A stretch of 64,000 nucleotides of DNA, taken from sequence record PP261279.1; one strand, written 5' to 3'. This document shows positions 6,066 to 32,064 of the stretch, piece by piece (the stretch's first letter is position 1; every line of letters starts with the position of its first letter). Origin of the DNA: Escherichia phage ECP2303. A program made the translations under genes and the position numbers. Below the pieces are notes generated by a model. The model ran no database searches. It saw only the letters and a list, made by a program, of their open reading frames with translations, and had not been told where the DNA came from.

Positions 6066-8663
6066 TTAAAGGTACAATCCACGGTATTGAGCATAGAGGC
6101 CCAGACCGCGAAGGATTTCGCCAGAGTGATAGCCTACCGGATCAGAAACTGCCCAGCAGCCGTTTAAAACATTATCCCCATTAATGAAGTGGTGCTTTTG
6201 CAGTAGCTTCACACAGGCTTCTACAACAATGTCTATTTGAGGTATTGTCTCTGAATACCCACACAGACCTAGCCAGCAGCAACCTGCAAGCCATTCACCT
6301 ACCACCCACATCCTGTCTCCTCTGTCTTGATAAGAATATCCCCCAGAGGTGTTAAAGTCTGTAGGCAGATTTCCTGAATGAGATGACTGGAATCTGTTGA
6401 GGAACCATGCCCATTTCTGGCAGAACAGGAATAGTCTTTCATCAACAGGTTCTTTATGTTTCTTGAGCTCATATATTGTGCGGCACGCAGCAACAAAAGA
6501 TCTTGACTGGAGCTTAGAGTTATCTACCATCTCCCACCAACCAGTCAACCCTTCATTACCTCTTTGCCATACATAACGTGAGGCAACTGGACCCTCTGTC
6601 TTAAATGTATTATTATACCAGACTTGAGCGTCATACAGAAAGCCTATTGTATTTGACAATCTATGGCGATCTATGTTTTCTGCACCCATACAGTAGACTG
6701 CTGGGTATTGCATGCCAGGGTAGGGCCAATTTGGCCTTTCCTCTAAGAGATAGTTTTCCTTATCTATCACCTTTCCGGCAGGGAACACCCCTGGCGTGTG
6801 CCTGTATGCACCTTGCTTGTAGTTTCTGACATAGCAATCGCCAACCTTAGCGGTTGATTCTGTCTTGCTTGCCATCCATACGCTAAACCAGATTAGATAA
6901 GCATCCCTGTCTGCAATATAGAATTGCGGCAGCGTGTTGACGCAGTACAGATCAAACAAGCCATTACCTATCTGCCTGTCGCTTAGGCTGAAATCTACAG
7001 AGGTGAGCCCCTTAGGATTAGCAAAGAAAGGTTTAATCTCTTCTTCGGTGTGATGAGGTTGTGTCGGATCTAGTTTGAAATCTCCTAGAGTAAGAGTTTC
7101 TGTTATCCATTGTCCATTAGTGGCATATAGATCAGCATACCATAACCACCTGTCTTTGTCAAGAAATTTGACCCTTACCATCTCATCATCTGATCGATAA
7201 GTTACTGAGTTTAAAGAAATCTCTCTTCCAAAATTGAAAGTTACTTTACCTCTTGCTATATTACAACGGGTGAAGTTGTCAGAGTGGTTGTAAATGTCGG
7301 TATCATACTGCATACCAACACCAGCACCACCGCTTACGGCAATGTTTTCCTCTTTAGGTAAGAGATACGGATTACCGTCTTTACCAACCACCTCTACGAA
7401 ATCAGTAACCTTGGCAACTATTTCTGTTACCTCTGCACCTCCAAAAGGGACACCTATCCTGTACTGTTTTTTGTTATTGTTACCATCATTAAGGATGAAA
7501 TGCGGCTGGAACAGAACACCTTCTCCTCCGAAATTCATAACAATTTCAGCATCTCTACCTATTTTGTATGTAGTCCCTTTTTGAATTATTTCGCAAGGCT
7601 GGCGTGCGTTCATTCTAAAATTGATATACCCGTCACTGTCCCTGCTCATGACAGGAACTGTTCCTGCAACAAGACAAGCACCATCTGTGAACGGTGCCTT
7701 AATCAACGTGGTCTTTCTAAACAGCTTGTCGTAGGCGTTTATATCACTGAAATTAAGCAACTTGTTGTAAGACTGTTTAAACGCGGTGTAATACTTTTCC
7801 TCACCTGTCAAGGTGTAGAGTTGATAACAAGCGTCACACCACATTTCTTCCCCGTCCAACTCCGGGGCCTGATTATCTGCAACCACGTTTATAGGATTTA
7901 CAATTACAGGGGATCCTGCAGGTATCACCGATCCACCCTGCTCTTGAGGTAATCTTACACAATAGGTCACCTTGTGGCTGCCTGTAACACCCTTATCTTG
8001 TAATTGGATTGTGCCGAACTCTACAGATGTATGACCACTGTCGGCTATGCTACCGTTAGCCCAATAGCGGTTACCATCCCATGCTATATACCACTCAACC
8101 CACCAACTTAATCCGGATGTTGTCCAATCCGGGTTAGCATCTGTGCCGCCGTAAACATCAGAGTCTACAGTGTTTCTTCCTAACACACCGTTATACGCTT
8201 GGAATGCCTTGTCCAGGTATTCCCCCCATGTCGGAGATCCAGCTGGGATTTTTCCTCTACCATTGGTAAAAGACACCACCACATCTTTAAACCCACCATG
8301 TGATGGAACCCCGTCTGTGGATAGAGGGTAGTGGGACAATCTTTGCATTTTACTTTCTACAGCATATGCACCCAGAAGATGACTATTGTAAGCTTCCCAA
8401 GCATCTTTTGCCCTATCCAGATAGAAATCGCTTTTCGATGCCCTATATGCTTCAATGTATCCCAGAATCAACACAGCTTGGGACTCATGCATTGCCCAAT
8501 CATTATTTATCTTATTACCTGCCCACCCTGCAGCTATAAGACCATCAGGGTTTACTAGCTTATTTTGTGTAGGGGTGTTGGTAATACCTGTGTTGTTATC
8601 GAGGCACTTCCTGTGCCCCTCAATCATCTGAAATACGTTATCAATGTTGTGTTGAATACGCAT
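6066..8663 (-). CDS. putative tailspike enzymatic subunit (polysaccharide depolymerase/glycosidase-like)
   Basis: 865 aa; translationally coupled to the upstream 222-aa anchor-domain protein (GGAG then ATG 1 nt after its stop); Trp/Tyr/Gly-rich composition typical of carbohydrate-active beta-helix or alpha-toroid proteins; no motif confirmed. Confidence 0.45.
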   Translation of the reverse strand: MRIQHNIDNVFQMIEGHRKCLDNNTGITNTPTQNKLVNPDGLIAAGWAGNKINNDWAMHESQAVLILGYIEAYRASKSDFYLDRAKDAWEAYNSHLLGAYAVESKMQRLSHYPLSTDGVPSHGGFKDVVVSFTNGRGKIPAGSPTWGEYLDKAFQAYNGVLGRNTVDSDVYGGTDANPDWTTSGLSWWVEWYIAWDGNRYWANGSIADSGHTSVEFGTIQLQDKGVTGSHKVTYCVRLPQEQGGSVIPAGSPVIVNPINVVADNQAPELDGEEMWCDACYQLYTLTGEEKYYTAFKQSYNKLLNFSDINAYDKLFRKTTLIKAPFTDGACLVAGTVPVMSRDSDGYINFRMNARQPCEIIQKGTTYKIGRDAEIVMNFGGEGVLFQPHFILNDGNNNKKQYRIGVPFGGAEVTEIVAKVTDFVEVVGKDGNPYLLPKEENIAVSGGAGVGMQYDTDIYNHSDNFTRCNIARGKVTFNFGREISLNSVTYRSDDEMVRVKFLDKDRWLWYADLYATNGQWITETLTLGDFKLDPTQPHHTEEEIKPFFANPKGLTSVDFSLSDRQIGNGLFDLYCVNTLPQFYIADRDAYLIWFSVWMASKTESTAKVGDCYVRNYKQGAYRHTPGVFPAGKVIDKENYLLEERPNWPYPGMQYPAVYCMGAENIDRHRLSNTIGFLYDAQVWYNNTFKTEGPVASRYVWQRGNEGLTGWWEMVDNSKLQSRSFVAACRTIYELKKHKEPVDERLFLFCQKWAWFLNRFQSSHSGNLPTDFNTSGGYSYQDRGDRMWVVGEWLAGCCWLGLCGYSETIPQIDIVVEACVKLLQKHHFINGDNVLNGCWAVSDPVGYHSGEILRGLGLYAQYRGLYL

Positions 8664-28715: not shown

Positions 28716-28792
28716 TGGTCTCCACGGAGTGATTCGAACACTCGACCTCCTGATCCCAAATCAGGCGCTCTACCAAGCTGAGCTACGCGGAG
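28716..28792 (-). tRNA. tRNA-Pro (anticodon UGG)
   Basis: Hand-folded cloverleaf: acceptor with C1-G72, D-arm GCTCAGCTTGGTAGAGC, anticodon loop UUUGGGA, T-arm GAGTG-TTCGAAT-CACTC, CCA encoded. Confidence 0.7.
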
Positions 28793-28803
28793 TATTTATT
28801 ATT

Positions 28804-28878
28804 TGGTGGCCCTGGGTGGAATTGAACCACCGTCTGGCGATTATGAGTCGCTTGCTTGAACCTTCCAGCTACAGGGCC
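28804..28878 (-). tRNA. tRNA-Met (anticodon CAU; initiator-like loop CUCAUAA)
   Basis: Acceptor GGCCCTG/CAGGGCC, anticodon loop CUCAUAA, T-arm GGTGG-TTCAATT-CCACC, CCA encoded; could alternatively be a lysidine-modified Ile tRNA. Confidence 0.6.
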
Positions 28879-28879
28879 A

Positions 28880-28955
28880 TGGTGCTGATGGCAGGACTTG
28901 AACCTGCAACCTATTGATTACAAATCAATTGCACTGACAATTGTGCTACATCAGC
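28880..28955 (-). tRNA. tRNA-Thr (anticodon UGU)
   Basis: Acceptor GCTGATG/CATCAGC, D-stem GCAC/GTGC, anticodon stem ATTGA/TCAAT with loop UUUGUAA, T-arm GCAGG-TTCAAGT-CCTGC, CCA encoded; 1-nt spacer from tRNA-Met. Confidence 0.7.
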
Positions 28956-28959
28956 AAAA

Positions 28960-29058
28960 GGTGCTAGGTGATGGAATCGAACCACCTATGTATTCAACGA
29001 CTACCTCGTCTATTTTCAGGATTAAAAATCCTCGCCCTTGCCAAAGGGCTTACCTAGC
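28960..29058 (-). tRNA. atypical tRNA-like gene (99 nt; Lys-type UUUUUAA anticodon loop; ~30-nt insertion before the T-arm)
   Basis: Perfect 7-bp acceptor (GCTAGGT/ACCTAGC), D-arm GCCC-TTTGGCAA-GGGC, 4-bp anticodon stem AGGA/TCCT with loop UUUUUAA, extra hairpin ACGA-GGTAG-TCGT, T-arm GGTGG-TTCGATT-CCATC; too long for a canonical type I tRNA and not folding as a standard type II. Confidence 0.35.
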
Positions 29059-29156
29059 GCAATATGTTGACCATGTGGCTAGTCGGCGATGACGACTGTA
29101 ACATTTGATAATCCGGTTCTGCTTCCGGCTTTCGCTTAATTACAAGGTCAACAATG

Positions 29157-29247
29157 TGGCGGAGAGTAATGGAATCGAACCATCATCGAGTTATCCTCAA
29201 CGGGACGGTTTTCAAGACCGCTTGAGCACCATTGCTCCCTACCCTCC
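29157..29247 (-). tRNA. tRNA-Ser (anticodon UGA), type II
   Basis: Anticodon arm GCGGT-CUUGAAA-ACCGT nearly identical to E. coli tRNA-Ser(UGA); long variable arm; T-arm GATGG-TTCGATT-CCATT; CCA encoded; 91 nt. Confidence 0.7.
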
Positions 29248-29361
29248 TTTATAAATTACACTGATAATGACACTGATTTTCGAGCAGTTAGTGACTAGTA
29301 TAAACGACGATAAATATCAATGTCATTATCTGTATGATTTATGCATTTAAAAATATAAATT

Positions 29362-29448
29362 TGGTGGGGAGTGGTGGAGTCGAACCACCCGAGTCGCAAT
29401 GACAATAGATTTACAGTCTACACCGCTACCTCTACGGGATAACTCCCC
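29362..29448 (-). tRNA. tRNA-Tyr (anticodon GUA), type II
   Basis: Anticodon arm GTAGA-CUGUAAA-TCTAT and variable region TGTCATTGCGACTCG resemble E. coli tRNA-Tyr; T-arm GGTGG-TTCGACT-CCACC; CCA encoded; 87 nt. Confidence 0.65.
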
Positions 29449-29452
29449 AATT

Positions 29453-29527
29453 TGGCACCCCGTACTGGACTCGAACCAGTGTCAACGGCTTAGAAGGCCG
29501 CTGCTTTATCCACTAAGCTAACAGGGC
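29453..29527 (-). tRNA. tRNA-Arg (anticodon UCU)
   Basis: Acceptor GCCCTGT/ACGGGGT (two G-U pairs), D-stem GCTT/AAGC, anticodon stem GCGGC/GCCGT with loop CUUCUAA, T-arm ACTGG-TTCGAGT-CCAGT, CCA encoded. Confidence 0.65.
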
Positions 29528-29585
29528 ACTGGGTGGCTTTCTTTTACACCTGAGCCGCCAGAAAAGGTGGGAGACCATGTTTATA

Positions 29586-29614
29586 ATATTACACTGTTAG
29601 GCAAAGTTTGTCAA
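29586..29614 (-). promoter_or_regulatory. sigma70-type promoter for the tRNA cluster
   Basis: Minus-strand TTGACA (29609-29614), 17-nt spacer, TAATAT (29586-29591) preceded by TG; about 55 nt upstream of tRNA-Arg. Confidence 0.5.
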
Positions 29615-29623
29615 GAAAATATT

Positions 29624-29962
29624 TTAACTATTGCCAACAGGCTGTATTTCTGTGGTAAATGGCATAAAAGGTGCTGGTTTTTCAGCCTCTTCTACTACCA
29701 CCTCTTCCTCTTCACCAAACATCTCATCATATTCTTCCTGCATTCGGTCTGCCTTATCAAGAACATACTCTGCAATGCTTTGACGAATATTTTGTTTGGT
29801 TTTCGGGTCCAACATCAGCTCTCTTAAAACTTTGTGAGCTTCTGGAACCATCGCTATAAAAGATTCCTTCATATCAAGGATGTTCTTCTCTAGCTGAATG
29901 GCGTTGGACTCCTCTTTCAGAGGTCTGCCTCTACGGCGACGCTTTTTAGTTGTATCCGCCAT
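29624..29962 (-). CDS. small basic/acidic protein with AT-hook-like KKRRRRGRP motif
   Basis: Start assigned to ATG at 29962 (GGAGGAAAC RBS), 112 aa; N-terminal Arg/Lys cluster with GRP core, C-terminal acidic tail; the longer track ORF (to 30082) would overlap the promoter. Confidence 0.45.
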   Translation of the reverse strand: MADTTKKRRRRGRPLKEESNAIQLEKNILDMKESFIAMVPEAHKVLRELMLDPKTKQNIRQSIAEYVLDKADRMQEEYDEMFGEEEEVVVEEAEKPAPFMPFTTEIQPVGNS

Positions 29963-29990
29963 GTTTCCTCCATTATCACGTGATAGGTGG

Positions 29991-30019
29991 ATTTTATCAC
30001 GGCAAATACTGATTGTCAA
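29991..30019 (-). promoter_or_regulatory. sigma70-type promoter
   Basis: Minus-strand TTGACA (30014-30019), 17-nt spacer, TAAAAT (29991-29996); a 7-bp-stem hairpin (30026-30046) abuts the -35. Confidence 0.45.
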
Positions 30020-30307
30020 GTTCGCCGCAGGGTGGTATTCCCTGCGACTTGCCCAGCGTCCTGGACCAGCAAGACCCAACAAGTGGGTTACCAGATACCC
30101 ATTACCGCGCTCTGGCTCGACCTTATTACAGGTTGGCTGGGGTCACATCGTCATGTGCTGGCTGCCCCTACCATTTTAAGTGTGGTGCACTATCAAGCCC
30201 TCTAAGGGGAACTCAGACTTCTCCGAACCCTGTTTCAAAGCATCCGGAGATAAAGCCATCAAACTCATCTTTAAATTGGATATTCATCATGATACACGAA
30301 AACAACC

Positions 30308-30550
30308 TCATTGTAAAGCACAAATAAATAAAACATACTTAATTTGTTTGTTATCGGGCTCAGGGTAGAAGTAGAAGATCTTGCTATCACCAATCTGCAC
30401 ACCACCATCCCAACAACATAAACCATAACCCGTATTCATACAAGCTAAGTCGTTTGCAAAATCTATTGCATCATCTAGTGCACGAAATTCACCTTCATCT
30501 TCTAAATAATCCTCATTCATGGAACGGAAAACGAGCTTAACCTTAAACAT
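30308..30550 (-). CDS. hypothetical early protein
   Basis: 80-aa acidic ORF. Confidence 0.4.
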   Translation of the reverse strand: MFKVKLVFRSMNEDYLEDEGEFRALDDAIDFANDLACMNTGYGLCCWDGGVQIGDSKIFYFYPEPDNKQIKYVLFICALQ

Positions 30551-30626
30551 AGCATTACCTGTAGACCTCGTAAGTTAAAATTGTATCACATCATATTGCA
30601 GATCTTATCAGGTAACATTATTTTTG

Positions 30627-30815
30627 TCAACAGATTCCGGCCTTATCCCTCCTGTCTGCGTATTCTTTAATCGCAACCTCACCTGCATTGGTAACCAGAT
30701 CTTCAAAGTAATTCTCAAGCTCCTCGTCAATGTCCGGTGACCAGCTCTTTTTCCTGTCAGTGTGAATTGCAGACTTGTTGAACTTATTACAATTCTTTGC
30801 TACCGGATTGTTCAT
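30627..30815 (-). CDS. hypothetical early protein
   Basis: 62-aa ORF. Confidence 0.35.
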   Translation of the reverse strand: MNNPVAKNCNKFNKSAIHTDRKKSWSPDIDEELENYFEDLVTNAGEVAIKEYADRRDKAGIC

Positions 30816-31404: not shown

Positions 31405-31908
31405 AGCAGACTCCTCTTCAAGTTATAGAAAAACTCACTGTATCGCTTTGTAACGAGCTTTTCTATCAAACTGGTGCGATTGCCTTACTTGGTATAGTTT
31501 ATATAGCTGTGGAGCGATTTAGGGGCCTTCTTGTCAGTTTCCACACATAAACTTTATCCGAACTCGCGCGGGAGGCTCTCAACCGACTCCTTCCGGCGCT
31601 GGCAAGCTTTCGTCGGTGGTACACATTAGTGCTCGGCCTTTGGCCTGCGCTATCGCTTCGCTCCCACACATGTTAACAGTCCTGCATGTATGCACTTCTG
31701 TTATTGTGTGCACTATGGAGGCCCGGCATCTCGCCCCTCGTAGGCGAGTGCCAATGAAGGGCCGACACTACCCATAATAAGTAATAAATTTAAAACATGG
31801 TACTTAGGATCTAGTATATTCTACATAAGTTAAGTATATGTACTTTAGTACCATAAGTACTAGATCTTTTATTTTTATTATTTAGTTATTTTAGTTATAT
31901 TCTTTATG

Positions 31909-31989
31909 TGTCCGTATCACGGACAGTTAGTGTCCGTATTACGGGCAGATGTGTCCGCGTGACGGACAGTAGTGTCCGTATCACGGACA
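31909..31989. repeat. array of four 17-bp palindromic iterons (TGTCCGT-ATC-ACGGACA) phased at 21-22 bp
   Basis: Copies at 31909-31925, 31931-31947 (variant), 31952-31968 (variant centre), 31973-31989; each has 7-bp inverted arms; read directly from sequence. Confidence 0.85.
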
Positions 31990-32064
31990 GTTACTAACCT
32001 CTGTTCCAGAGTGAACATAAAACATACAAATCCTTATAGTACAGATGTTTAAGTTTTTACTGGT

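Follow-up and report, generated by a model that had tools for sequence, protein, structure and literature searches.

A predicted pseudoknotted RNA, shared with unrelated phages, in the ORF75–ORF74 gap of Escherichia phage ECP2303

The gap between ORF75 and ORF74 of Escherichia phage ECP2303 (sequence record PP261279.1) was singled out in an original prediction as GC-rich, poor in open reading frames (ORFs) and possibly the source of a small stable RNA, as found near the tRNA clusters of T4-like phages, or a regulatory structure. Comparative analysis shows this gap to hold one member, at 30172–30090 on the minus strand, of a predicted RNA family that is conserved, pseudoknotted and specific to phages. 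Positions are those of the window, the whole stretch of 64,000 nucleotides (nt) analyzed here. As judged from sequence, this widely distributed and uncatalogued structured RNA appears to be real. Wide conservation of the segment, and helices that covary as in a folded RNA, support the suggestion that a structured RNA lies near the tRNA cluster. Its functional core, however, is the element at 30172–30090 and not the hairpin emphasized in the prediction, whose interpretation of the gap is supported in part. Absence of conservation in relatives had been named as the observation that would count against the idea, and the opposite was found: the segment is conserved far beyond its relatives.

Fold of the core RNA and its comparative evidence

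The core consists of helix H1, a pseudoknot and a three-way junction. Its parts in the window copy are as follows.

30090–30172, minus strand: core structured RNA (H1, pseudoknot, three-way junction), about 83 nt, covariance model R1, 45.8 bits.
30165–30168, minus strand: 5′ strand of H1, GGGG, pairing with CCCC at 30142–30139.
30157–30162, minus strand: 5′ strand of the pseudoknot, GCCAG(C), in the H1 loop 2 nt after H1, complementary to CUGGU.
30144–30157, minus strand: inner hairpin CACAU-GACG-AUGUG, a variable insert in the H1 loop.
30139–30142, minus strand: 3′ strand of H1, CCCC, pairing with GGGG at 30168–30165.
30134–30136, minus strand: 5′ strand of closing helix C, CCA, pairing with UGG at 30101–30099.
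30120–30133, minus strand: hairpin P3, ACCU-GUAAUA-AGGU, 100% paired in 60 sequences.
30106–30119, minus strand: short hairpin region P4, CGAGC-CAGA-GCGCG, which two registers fit.
30098–30105, minus strand: junction strand GUAA (30105–30102), then the 3′ strand of helix C, UGG(G); GGUAA is invariant in the members found.
30090–30094, minus strand: 3′ strand of the pseudoknot, CUGGU, pairing with GCCAG at 30162–30158.

Comparison shows pairing between the 5′ part of the H1 loop and the tail 3′ of helix C, a predicted H-type pseudoknot by which the three-way junction is clamped. The family has the junction motif ACCUGU...AAGGUC...GCGGUAA, and the invariant 32-nt motif at 30133–30102 gave 0 matches in 100 shuffles. 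The junction strands (A / C-N-N / GGUAA) are near-invariant across the family, the P3 loop fits GURRNA, and one G-C variant occurs in the P3 pairing. The 3′ strand of H1 always ends 4–6 nt before CCUGU. Elsewhere in the family the insert in the H1 loop is a different hairpin or none, and the inner hairpin is missing in Rouf-type members.

Covariance model R1 was built from 20 T4-like sequences only. Folding of these 20 with RNAalifold, on a MAFFT alignment, recovers H1, C, P3 and P4; 99% of the alignment cells pair, against 30%–45% in slid controls, and the covariation score of 0.174 (0.058 when shuffled) was reached by 0 of 500 shuffles. The model matches the window copy over model positions 1–107 (E about 1e-7) and recovers every other lineage full length. 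It finds a single copy in the window and a single copy in T4 62–75 kb (64852–64941, upstream of vs.8); there was no second copy of the element in the window or in the T4 tRNA region.

Across 60 distinct sequences, 94.8% of cells pair, against 23%–49% in slid controls. Fifteen pairs vary on both sides, with a covariation score of 0.313 versus 0.085. All four pairs of H1 (98.7% of cells paired) and all three of helix C vary in this way. At one pair of helix C the combinations are CG 45, GC 11 and AU 3, and at the next CG 40, GC 8 and UA 7; another pair among H1 and C shows AU 33, GC 19, CG 3 and UA 3. For P4, RNAalifold gives four pairs and an A.G mismatch, and of the two registers it is the two-base-pair one, G-C / C-G, that has compensatory GC and UA variants in divergent members including the vequintavirus L107 (98.3% paired). 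G.U pairs were seen in 38–40 sequences in P4 and in 14–16 in C. On the opposite strand each of these would read as an A.C mismatch, which identifies the minus strand as the sense of the RNA.

The pseudoknot was followed in a MAFFT alignment of 21 T4-like sequences, where its three central pairs are paired in 21 of 21. The bases are swapped between members, with CG 14, AU 6 and GC 1 at one pair and GC 14 and CG 7 at another. Compact members have a pseudoknot in the same place with other sequences: CUCCGG/CCGGAG in phage Ivi, CGGA/UCCG in the Rouf type and CGGU/GCCG in L085. The rV5-type pairing, GCCAG(C)/(G)CUGGU, becomes GCCAGC/GCUGGU in the relative L054. A MAFFT alignment of all compact types (A1) left the 5′ strands of H1 out of register and was excluded from the counts. 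Two further pairings were tried and rejected: a long-range ACUAACC/GGUUAGU pairing in the Rouf type, which a mismatch in L042 leaves unsupported by compensation, and a CGC/GYG pairing across the closing helix, which is topologically inconsistent.

Distribution, the T4 copy and genomic context

When the segment was compared by blastn with 50,697 phage records, there were 118 vequintavirus matches over its full length. About 560 T4-like records in the same database match only 45 nt (30096–30140), at 89%–95% identity. A T4-based query of 157 nt matched 1,117 phage records, which span Tequatrovirus, Dhakavirus, Moonvirus, Jiaodavirus, Karamvirus, Winklervirus and others, together with the 44.9-kb phage Ivi. 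In all, about 1,000 T4-like records carry the family. Further members came from pattern scans of IMG/VR and metagenomes followed by covariance-model search. They comprise a second vequintavirus type (L043 and relatives), Klebsiella Roufvirus-like siphophages of ∼46–70 kb, a 359-kb jumbo-phage contig and several unclassified or metagenomic phage contigs. No bacterial or archaeal genome among 185,579 carries the exact pattern of the core, and blastn of the window segment against 5,426 E. coli genomes found nothing; a host origin of the element was rejected on these grounds.

Two side observations concern the records themselves. Karamvirus-like phages have two tandem copies of the element upstream of vs.8 (L036 5089–5171, L040 9100–9183 and L081 442–525), of which the second has a divergent P4 and a G-C in place of the A-U closing pair of P3. 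Eighteen records labeled "Campylobacter phage" (MG0656xx) are 95%–99% identical to this E. coli vequintavirus region, which suggests that they are mislabeled or contaminant assemblies.

The T4 copy is found downstream of denV, where the annotated vs.8 region has its 5′ end. The reference (AF158101) places Vs.8 at 64253–64912, as a protein of 219 amino acids (aa) whose start falls inside the RNA element (∼64852–64941). The first 40 codons are probably a mis-annotation, as read from the sequences, because other T4-like phages have stop codons in that frame (in phage ASO78A within the element itself) and PHROG 1488 covers only a 179-aa form of Vs.8. The Vs.8 protein falls to 37% identity while the RNA core stays unchanged. 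In close relatives the tail of the element has indels of −1, +2 and +3 nt; these frameshifts, with the in-frame stop of ASO78A, exclude a coding core. The T4-like phages also have a 3′ extension, ∼20–60 nt 3′ of the core (e.g., L017 1250–1300), with two GGA motifs, AUACAUGGAUGA and a hairpin, GCC-AAGGAAU-GGC. These motifs resemble the consensus of CsrA binding sites.

At least eight lineages have tRNA genes within ∼1 kb of the element and in the same orientation: both vequintavirus types, the Rouf type, L064, L085, L094, L099, L090 and L108/L110. In L064 it sits between two tRNAs, and in the jumbo contig (L094) it abuts tRNA-Glu; the T4 homolog is ∼6 kb from the T4 tRNA cluster. The genes downstream vary by lineage (vs.8, ORF74, tRNAs and small ORFs). 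No neighboring protein is common to the lineages, Vs.8 being restricted to T4-like phages, and searches of the ORF74, ORF75 and Vs.8 proteins against Pfam and PHROG gave no informative domain. A link of the RNA to tRNA or translation biology rests only on genomic association.

The surroundings differ in architecture from one lineage to another. The L043-type unit lies between two strong promoters, TTGACA-17-TATACT upstream (11 of 12 matches) and TTGACA-17-TAAACT downstream (10 of 12). The Rouf-type element is enclosed by a long basal stem, GUUGUGAC/GUCACAAC and AGUGCUCUU/AAGAGCAUU, and belongs to an array of similarly enclosed units, an arrangement that suggests endonucleolytic processing. At Rouf-type loci, including L058 at 6760–7300, non-coding units stand within inverted repeats, CAGUGCUCUU...AAGAGCAUUG, downstream of a 12-tRNA cluster, and the element is followed by at least one further long structured unit that ends in a terminator. 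In phage Ivi a C/U-rich stretch and a terminator lie just downstream of the element (2607–2652). This stretch has a weak likeness (24.5 bits, E 0.42) to RF02278, the "toxic small RNA" family.

Flanking modules and setting in the ECP2303 genome

Escherichia phage ECP2309 has the same region with 100% identity, and phage rV5 (genus Vequintavirus) has it with 97%; the rV5 record annotates sigma-70 promoters, P75 and P74, on either side of the gap. The features around the core, from the upstream gene to the downstream one, are these.

30308–30550, minus strand: ORF75, upstream neighbor of the gap (rV5 record).
30289–30317, minus strand: promoter-like site TTTACA-17-TATCAT (10 of 12 matches), overlapping the end of ORF75; putative start of the RNA transcript.
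30213–30290, minus strand: possible small ORF MMNIQFKDEFDGFISGCFETGFGEV, 25 codons, conserved, containing a hairpin at 30249–30221; uncertain.
30179–30212, minus strand: 5′ module GUUCCCCUUAGAGGGCUUGAUAGUGCACCACACU with two small hairpins, single copy in the window.
30048–30083, minus strand: 3′ hairpin region hp2, CUUG...CCAG-GACG-CUGG...CAAG.
30024–30048, minus strand: terminal GC-rich hairpin, including the perfect stem at 30026–30046 and lacking a U-tract.
29991–30019, minus strand: promoter P74 for ORF74, TTGACA-17-TAAAAT (11 of 12 matches), with TTGACA at 30019–30014 (rV5 annotation).
29624–29962, minus strand: ORF74, downstream neighbor of the gap (rV5 record).

The composition and coding content of the gap are as first described. 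GC content is 0.53–0.56 across 30000–30250 and 0.33–0.45 in both flanks (150-nt windows). The ORF list confirms that minus-strand ORFs in 30083–30307 all fall short of 60 aa: a 30-aa ORF, a 36-aa ORF and the tail of a 51-aa ORF are the only ones there. The plus-strand frames do overlap in all three phases, as ORFs of 93, 72 and 104 aa starting at 29898, 29987 and 30013. Some genome records annotate a third small "hypothetical protein" between ORF75 and ORF74. The KDEFDGF motif of the MMNIQFKDEFDGFISGCFETGFGEV ORF recurs in an 8-codon ORF with a strong Shine-Dalgarno sequence in L043-type vequintaviruses, and the relative L074 has two synonymous changes in this ORF. The upstream third of the gap may not belong to the RNA, being perhaps a promoter and a small ORF instead.

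The modules next to the core differ in their conservation. The 34-nt 5′ module is nearly identical in L043-type vequintaviruses, where it begins just after their TTGACA-17-TATACT promoter and a second copy follows the core. On the 3′ side, hp2 is probably dispensable, at least by sequence comparison, because it is partly deleted in the relative L078. The hairpin CGCAGGG-tggtatt-CCCTGCG at 30026–30046, 6 bp from TTGACA, is present exactly as the prediction had it, and grows to nine pairs on the minus strand. Perfect 7-bp hairpins of any composition number 65 in the window against ∼24 in shuffles; those with at least six G/C in the stem number 7 against 0.45 expected, and the hairpin at 30026–30046 is among them. 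Examined as an intrinsic terminator, it has the stem followed by GCGAACUUGACA, with no U-run. It is not a canonical intrinsic terminator because the U-tract is lacking, and a scan of 29500–30700 found 0 terminator-like sites. L043-type phages have a different hairpin in the same place, UGCUGG-GGACGGA-CCAGCA, 5 nt before their TTGACA. The hairpin at 30026–30046 is only a 3′ flanking structure of the larger RNA feature.

A cluster of seven tRNA genes (28716–29527, ARAGORN) lies just downstream of the gap on the same, minus, strand, and the RNA core is ∼560 nt upstream of its tRNA-Arg. One member of the region, at 28960–29058 on the minus strand, is a 99-nt tRNA-like gene to which ARAGORN assigns a four-base anticodon, "atcc"; the Rfam tRNA model gives it only 35.5 bits. 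The gene is also found in the divergent vequintavirus L107 (270–367).

Two further places near the locus drew attention. The minus-strand segment at 31500–31775 is likewise GC-rich (0.55) and ORF-poor, and the rV5 record shows a doubtful 56-aa "ORF78" there. The segment is conserved in 118 vequintavirus records only, mostly without annotation, has a minimum free energy z-score of −1.8 and lacks an Rfam match; it is possibly another non-coding RNA. At 31908–31993, beside the very AT-rich 31780–31900, the palindromic site TGTCCGTATCACGGACA occurs in four tandem copies of 21–22 bp, an array that looks like an operator array for a DNA-binding protein.

Relation to known RNAs and possible roles

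No catalogued family accounts for the element. At the gathering threshold, Rfam 15 finds only six tRNAs in the window; at E up to 10 it returns only 12–16-bit noise in 29900–30450, and at E up to 5 nothing on the element in eight homologous loci. ARAGORN places no tRNA or tmRNA at 30020–30310, and the Rfam tRNA model agrees. The core sequence appears in none of the literature searched, although a 2023 catalogue of ∼10,000 viral structured-RNA candidates (PMC10690425) could include it unnamed. The literature searches found no paper pairing "vs.8" with T4, and other searches yielded nothing on the element.

Among known RNAs, those nearest in kind are the stable RNAs rnaC and rnaD of T4, unexplained members of a phage tRNA cluster, to which the element is not homologous. 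These have been called "RNAs of yet unknown functions" (PMC9697503). Like the element, they are phage-encoded structured RNAs other than tRNAs, and they are transcribed with the tRNA cluster; the window copy shares their position in or near such a cluster on the same strand, whereas the T4 homolog does not. Kinship was rejected, as R1 run over T4 62–75 kb matches only the copy upstream of vs.8. The model has no match at rnaC/rnaD (70908–71171), and no similarity is apparent by eye. The element also lacks the tRNA-like T-arm and acceptor at the end of rnaC, and its family is far more widely distributed than rnaC and rnaD.

Other RNAs resemble it in part. ROOL, GOLLD, drum and skipping-rope are orphan structured motifs that neighbor phage tRNAs, as described in Rfam and in the motif papers of Breaker and Weinberg. 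They share its phage association and tRNA neighborhood, but ROOL and GOLLD are much larger. Pectobacterium phage phiTE, a relative of rV5, reportedly encodes pseudo-ToxI, an RNA-based counter-defence described by Blower et al. in 2012. It too is a small structured non-coding RNA of a virulent phage of the same subfamily, and it acts in trans on a host factor; the element differs in having no tandem 36-nt repeats and no known similarity to ToxI. The absence of a host counterpart in the 185,579 genomes further indicates that the element is not a mimic of a host-encoded antitoxin RNA. A mimic of the type I-E CRISPR repeat was also considered, as GAGTTCCCC at ∼30214–30206 equals the first 9 nt of the E. 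coli repeat. It was rejected: sister phages have GCGTTCCCC or GCGTATCCC there, the rest of the repeat is unmatched, and there is no match in the E. coli genomes. GCGGUAA and its surroundings also bear some likeness to the 530 loop of 16S rRNA, to 5S rRNA and to RNase P RNA. The matching bases on either side of the common GUAA motif are not conserved among family members, so the likenesses were judged to be due to chance.

We favor, with a probability of roughly 0.55, a processed, stand-alone structured RNA that would bind a conserved factor or ligand in trans. It would be transcribed with the early genes, from P75 or from the TTTACA-17-TATCAT site, and in L043-type vequintaviruses presumably from its own TTGACA-17-TATACT promoter. 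Processing might then release a small RNA of roughly 100–190 nt, for which the 5′ module (30212–30179) and the GC-rich 3′ hairpins could serve as protective or processing ends just before P74. The invariant junction and the pseudoknot would offer a pocket or surface for a factor conserved in enterobacteria. The putative partner may be a protein or RNA of the tRNA and translation apparatus, or a small ligand. Such an RNA would act in trans during host takeover or counter-defence, not by regulating one downstream gene.

Several points weigh against this picture or against the strength of the fold behind it. The 60-sequence alignment was fitted to the model structure, so its pairing is somewhat inflated. 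Most members were gathered with patterns that fix much of the junction, so that the "invariance," including that of P3 and GGUAA, is partly ascertainment; P4 and the two nt that follow AAGGUC do differ in divergent members. Taken alone, H1 as identified in each lineage reaches only modest significance (Fisher p = 7e-4), and the per-lineage permutation tests are individually weak. The single-sequence thermodynamic signal is weak as well (core, z −0.95; whole segment, z −1.76); as these folding energies are unexceptional, the case for the fold rests on comparison and not on thermodynamics. Where the L043 type has its upstream promoter, the rV5 type has a hairpin or small ORF. In T4-like phages the element is always the 5′ leader of vs.8, with the conserved 3′ extension, which suits a role in cis. 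Finally, the accumulation, ends and stability of the RNA are inferred.

A cis-acting leader, either riboswitch-like or a protein-binding aptamer, would control the genes downstream (vs.8 in T4-like phages; in the window, ORF74 and the tRNA cluster). The element always precedes a gene in the sense orientation, in strict synteny with vs.8 in T4-like phages, where the conserved extension reaches to ∼10–20 nt before the start codon, and is always upstream of the ORF74 homolog in both vequintavirus types. Its fold is also aptamer-like: riboswitch aptamers share the small junction with invariant joining strands (an invariance that here is partly ascertainment), the clamping pseudoknot and the variable peripheral helices. 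Riboswitches nonetheless have an expression platform and coherent downstream genes, and the element has neither. Its downstream genes are unrelated between lineages, some being tRNAs; a strong promoter stands between it and the next gene in the window, in the L043 type and in Ivi; and no terminator or antiterminator, no alternative structure sequestering a Shine-Dalgarno sequence and no Rfam riboswitch match was seen. A leader of this kind is unlikely, if not strikingly so.

We think it rather improbable that the element is a self-cleaving ribozyme or RNA-processing module separating an upstream mRNA from downstream tRNAs or genes. HDV-like (hepatitis delta virus-like) "theta" ribozymes are said to lie next to phage tRNAs (Kienbeck et al., 2024), and they share several features with the element: a compact pseudoknotted RNA beside viral tRNA genes, on the same strand, with plausible processing of the transcript. 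The element is independent of gene context, sense and intergenic, and abuts tRNAs in some phages; it has invariant junction nucleotides, and its strand order (H1, pseudoknot 5′, inner hairpin, H1 3′, domain, pseudoknot 3′) is loosely HDV-like. Yet it lacks the nested double pseudoknot with P1.1 and the catalytic C in J4/2, and its conserved nucleotides belong to the peripheral junction domain, away from the position of the active site in the HDV-like fold. The inner hairpin is lacking in Rouf-type members and no cleavage site can be inferred. None of the known classes (HDV-like, twister, pistol, hatchet, hammerhead) gave an Rfam match, even at E up to 10, and the window copy has no CUGANGA/GAAA core.

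The DNA itself could be what functions: a homing site, or a cassette for recombination or shuffling, that moves from phage to phage and has the hairpin and promoter for its working elements. T4-type phages are said to carry promoter-early stem-loop cassettes (Arbiol, Comeau and Krisch, 2010), and the hairpin at 30026–30046 with P74 is just such a stem-loop directly upstream of an early sigma-70 promoter in a plastic region. The near-identical 45 bp in unrelated phages implies horizontal exchange, the order of hairpin then promoter recurs in the rV5 type, the L043 type and Ivi, and the element is found in hyperplastic early regions. The cassette likeness, however, covers only 30048–29991 and not the upstream junction and pseudoknot RNA common to the other phages; the piece held in common is the junction core, not the hairpin or promoter. 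A DNA-level element is very improbable: duplex DNA would not be expected to show compensatory changes, G.U pairs confined to one strand or a pseudoknot, all of them marks of RNA. Least credible of all is an ordinary spacer, a GC-rich leftover with a stabilizing or terminator hairpin and unannotated small ORFs. The annotated third "hypothetical protein," the conserved 25-codon ORF and the unremarkable folding z-scores of single sequences would fit it, but it is contradicted by conservation across phage families and by covariation, frameshifting indels rule out ORFs through the core, and the plus-strand ORFs overlap in all three phases.

A more specific role for the element is a tentative suggestion, well short of an expectation. 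The element may found a functional RNA class of its own. It would serve either as an aptamer, for a small molecule or second messenger, or as a decoy or inhibitor directed at a conserved enterobacterial tRNA, translation or defence factor, and would have been exchanged horizontally among unrelated virulent phages (T4-like, rV5-like, jumbo and siphophages) as an RNA-based tool of takeover or counter-defence. The near-constant core, amid proteins that diverge to 37% identity and phage families that are unrelated, and its absence from the bacterial genomes scanned point to strong selection for a specific interaction during enterobacterial infection. T4, among the best-studied of phages, carries the fold unrecognized, annotated within Vs.8. 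Placement in tRNA arrays ties the RNA to the question of why phage tRNA clusters include RNAs that are not tRNAs, of which rnaC and rnaD have stood unexplained for 50 years. As the element is small, with a pseudoknot that can be tested, and is present in tractable phages (T4 and the rV5-like phages), its function should be accessible to experiment.

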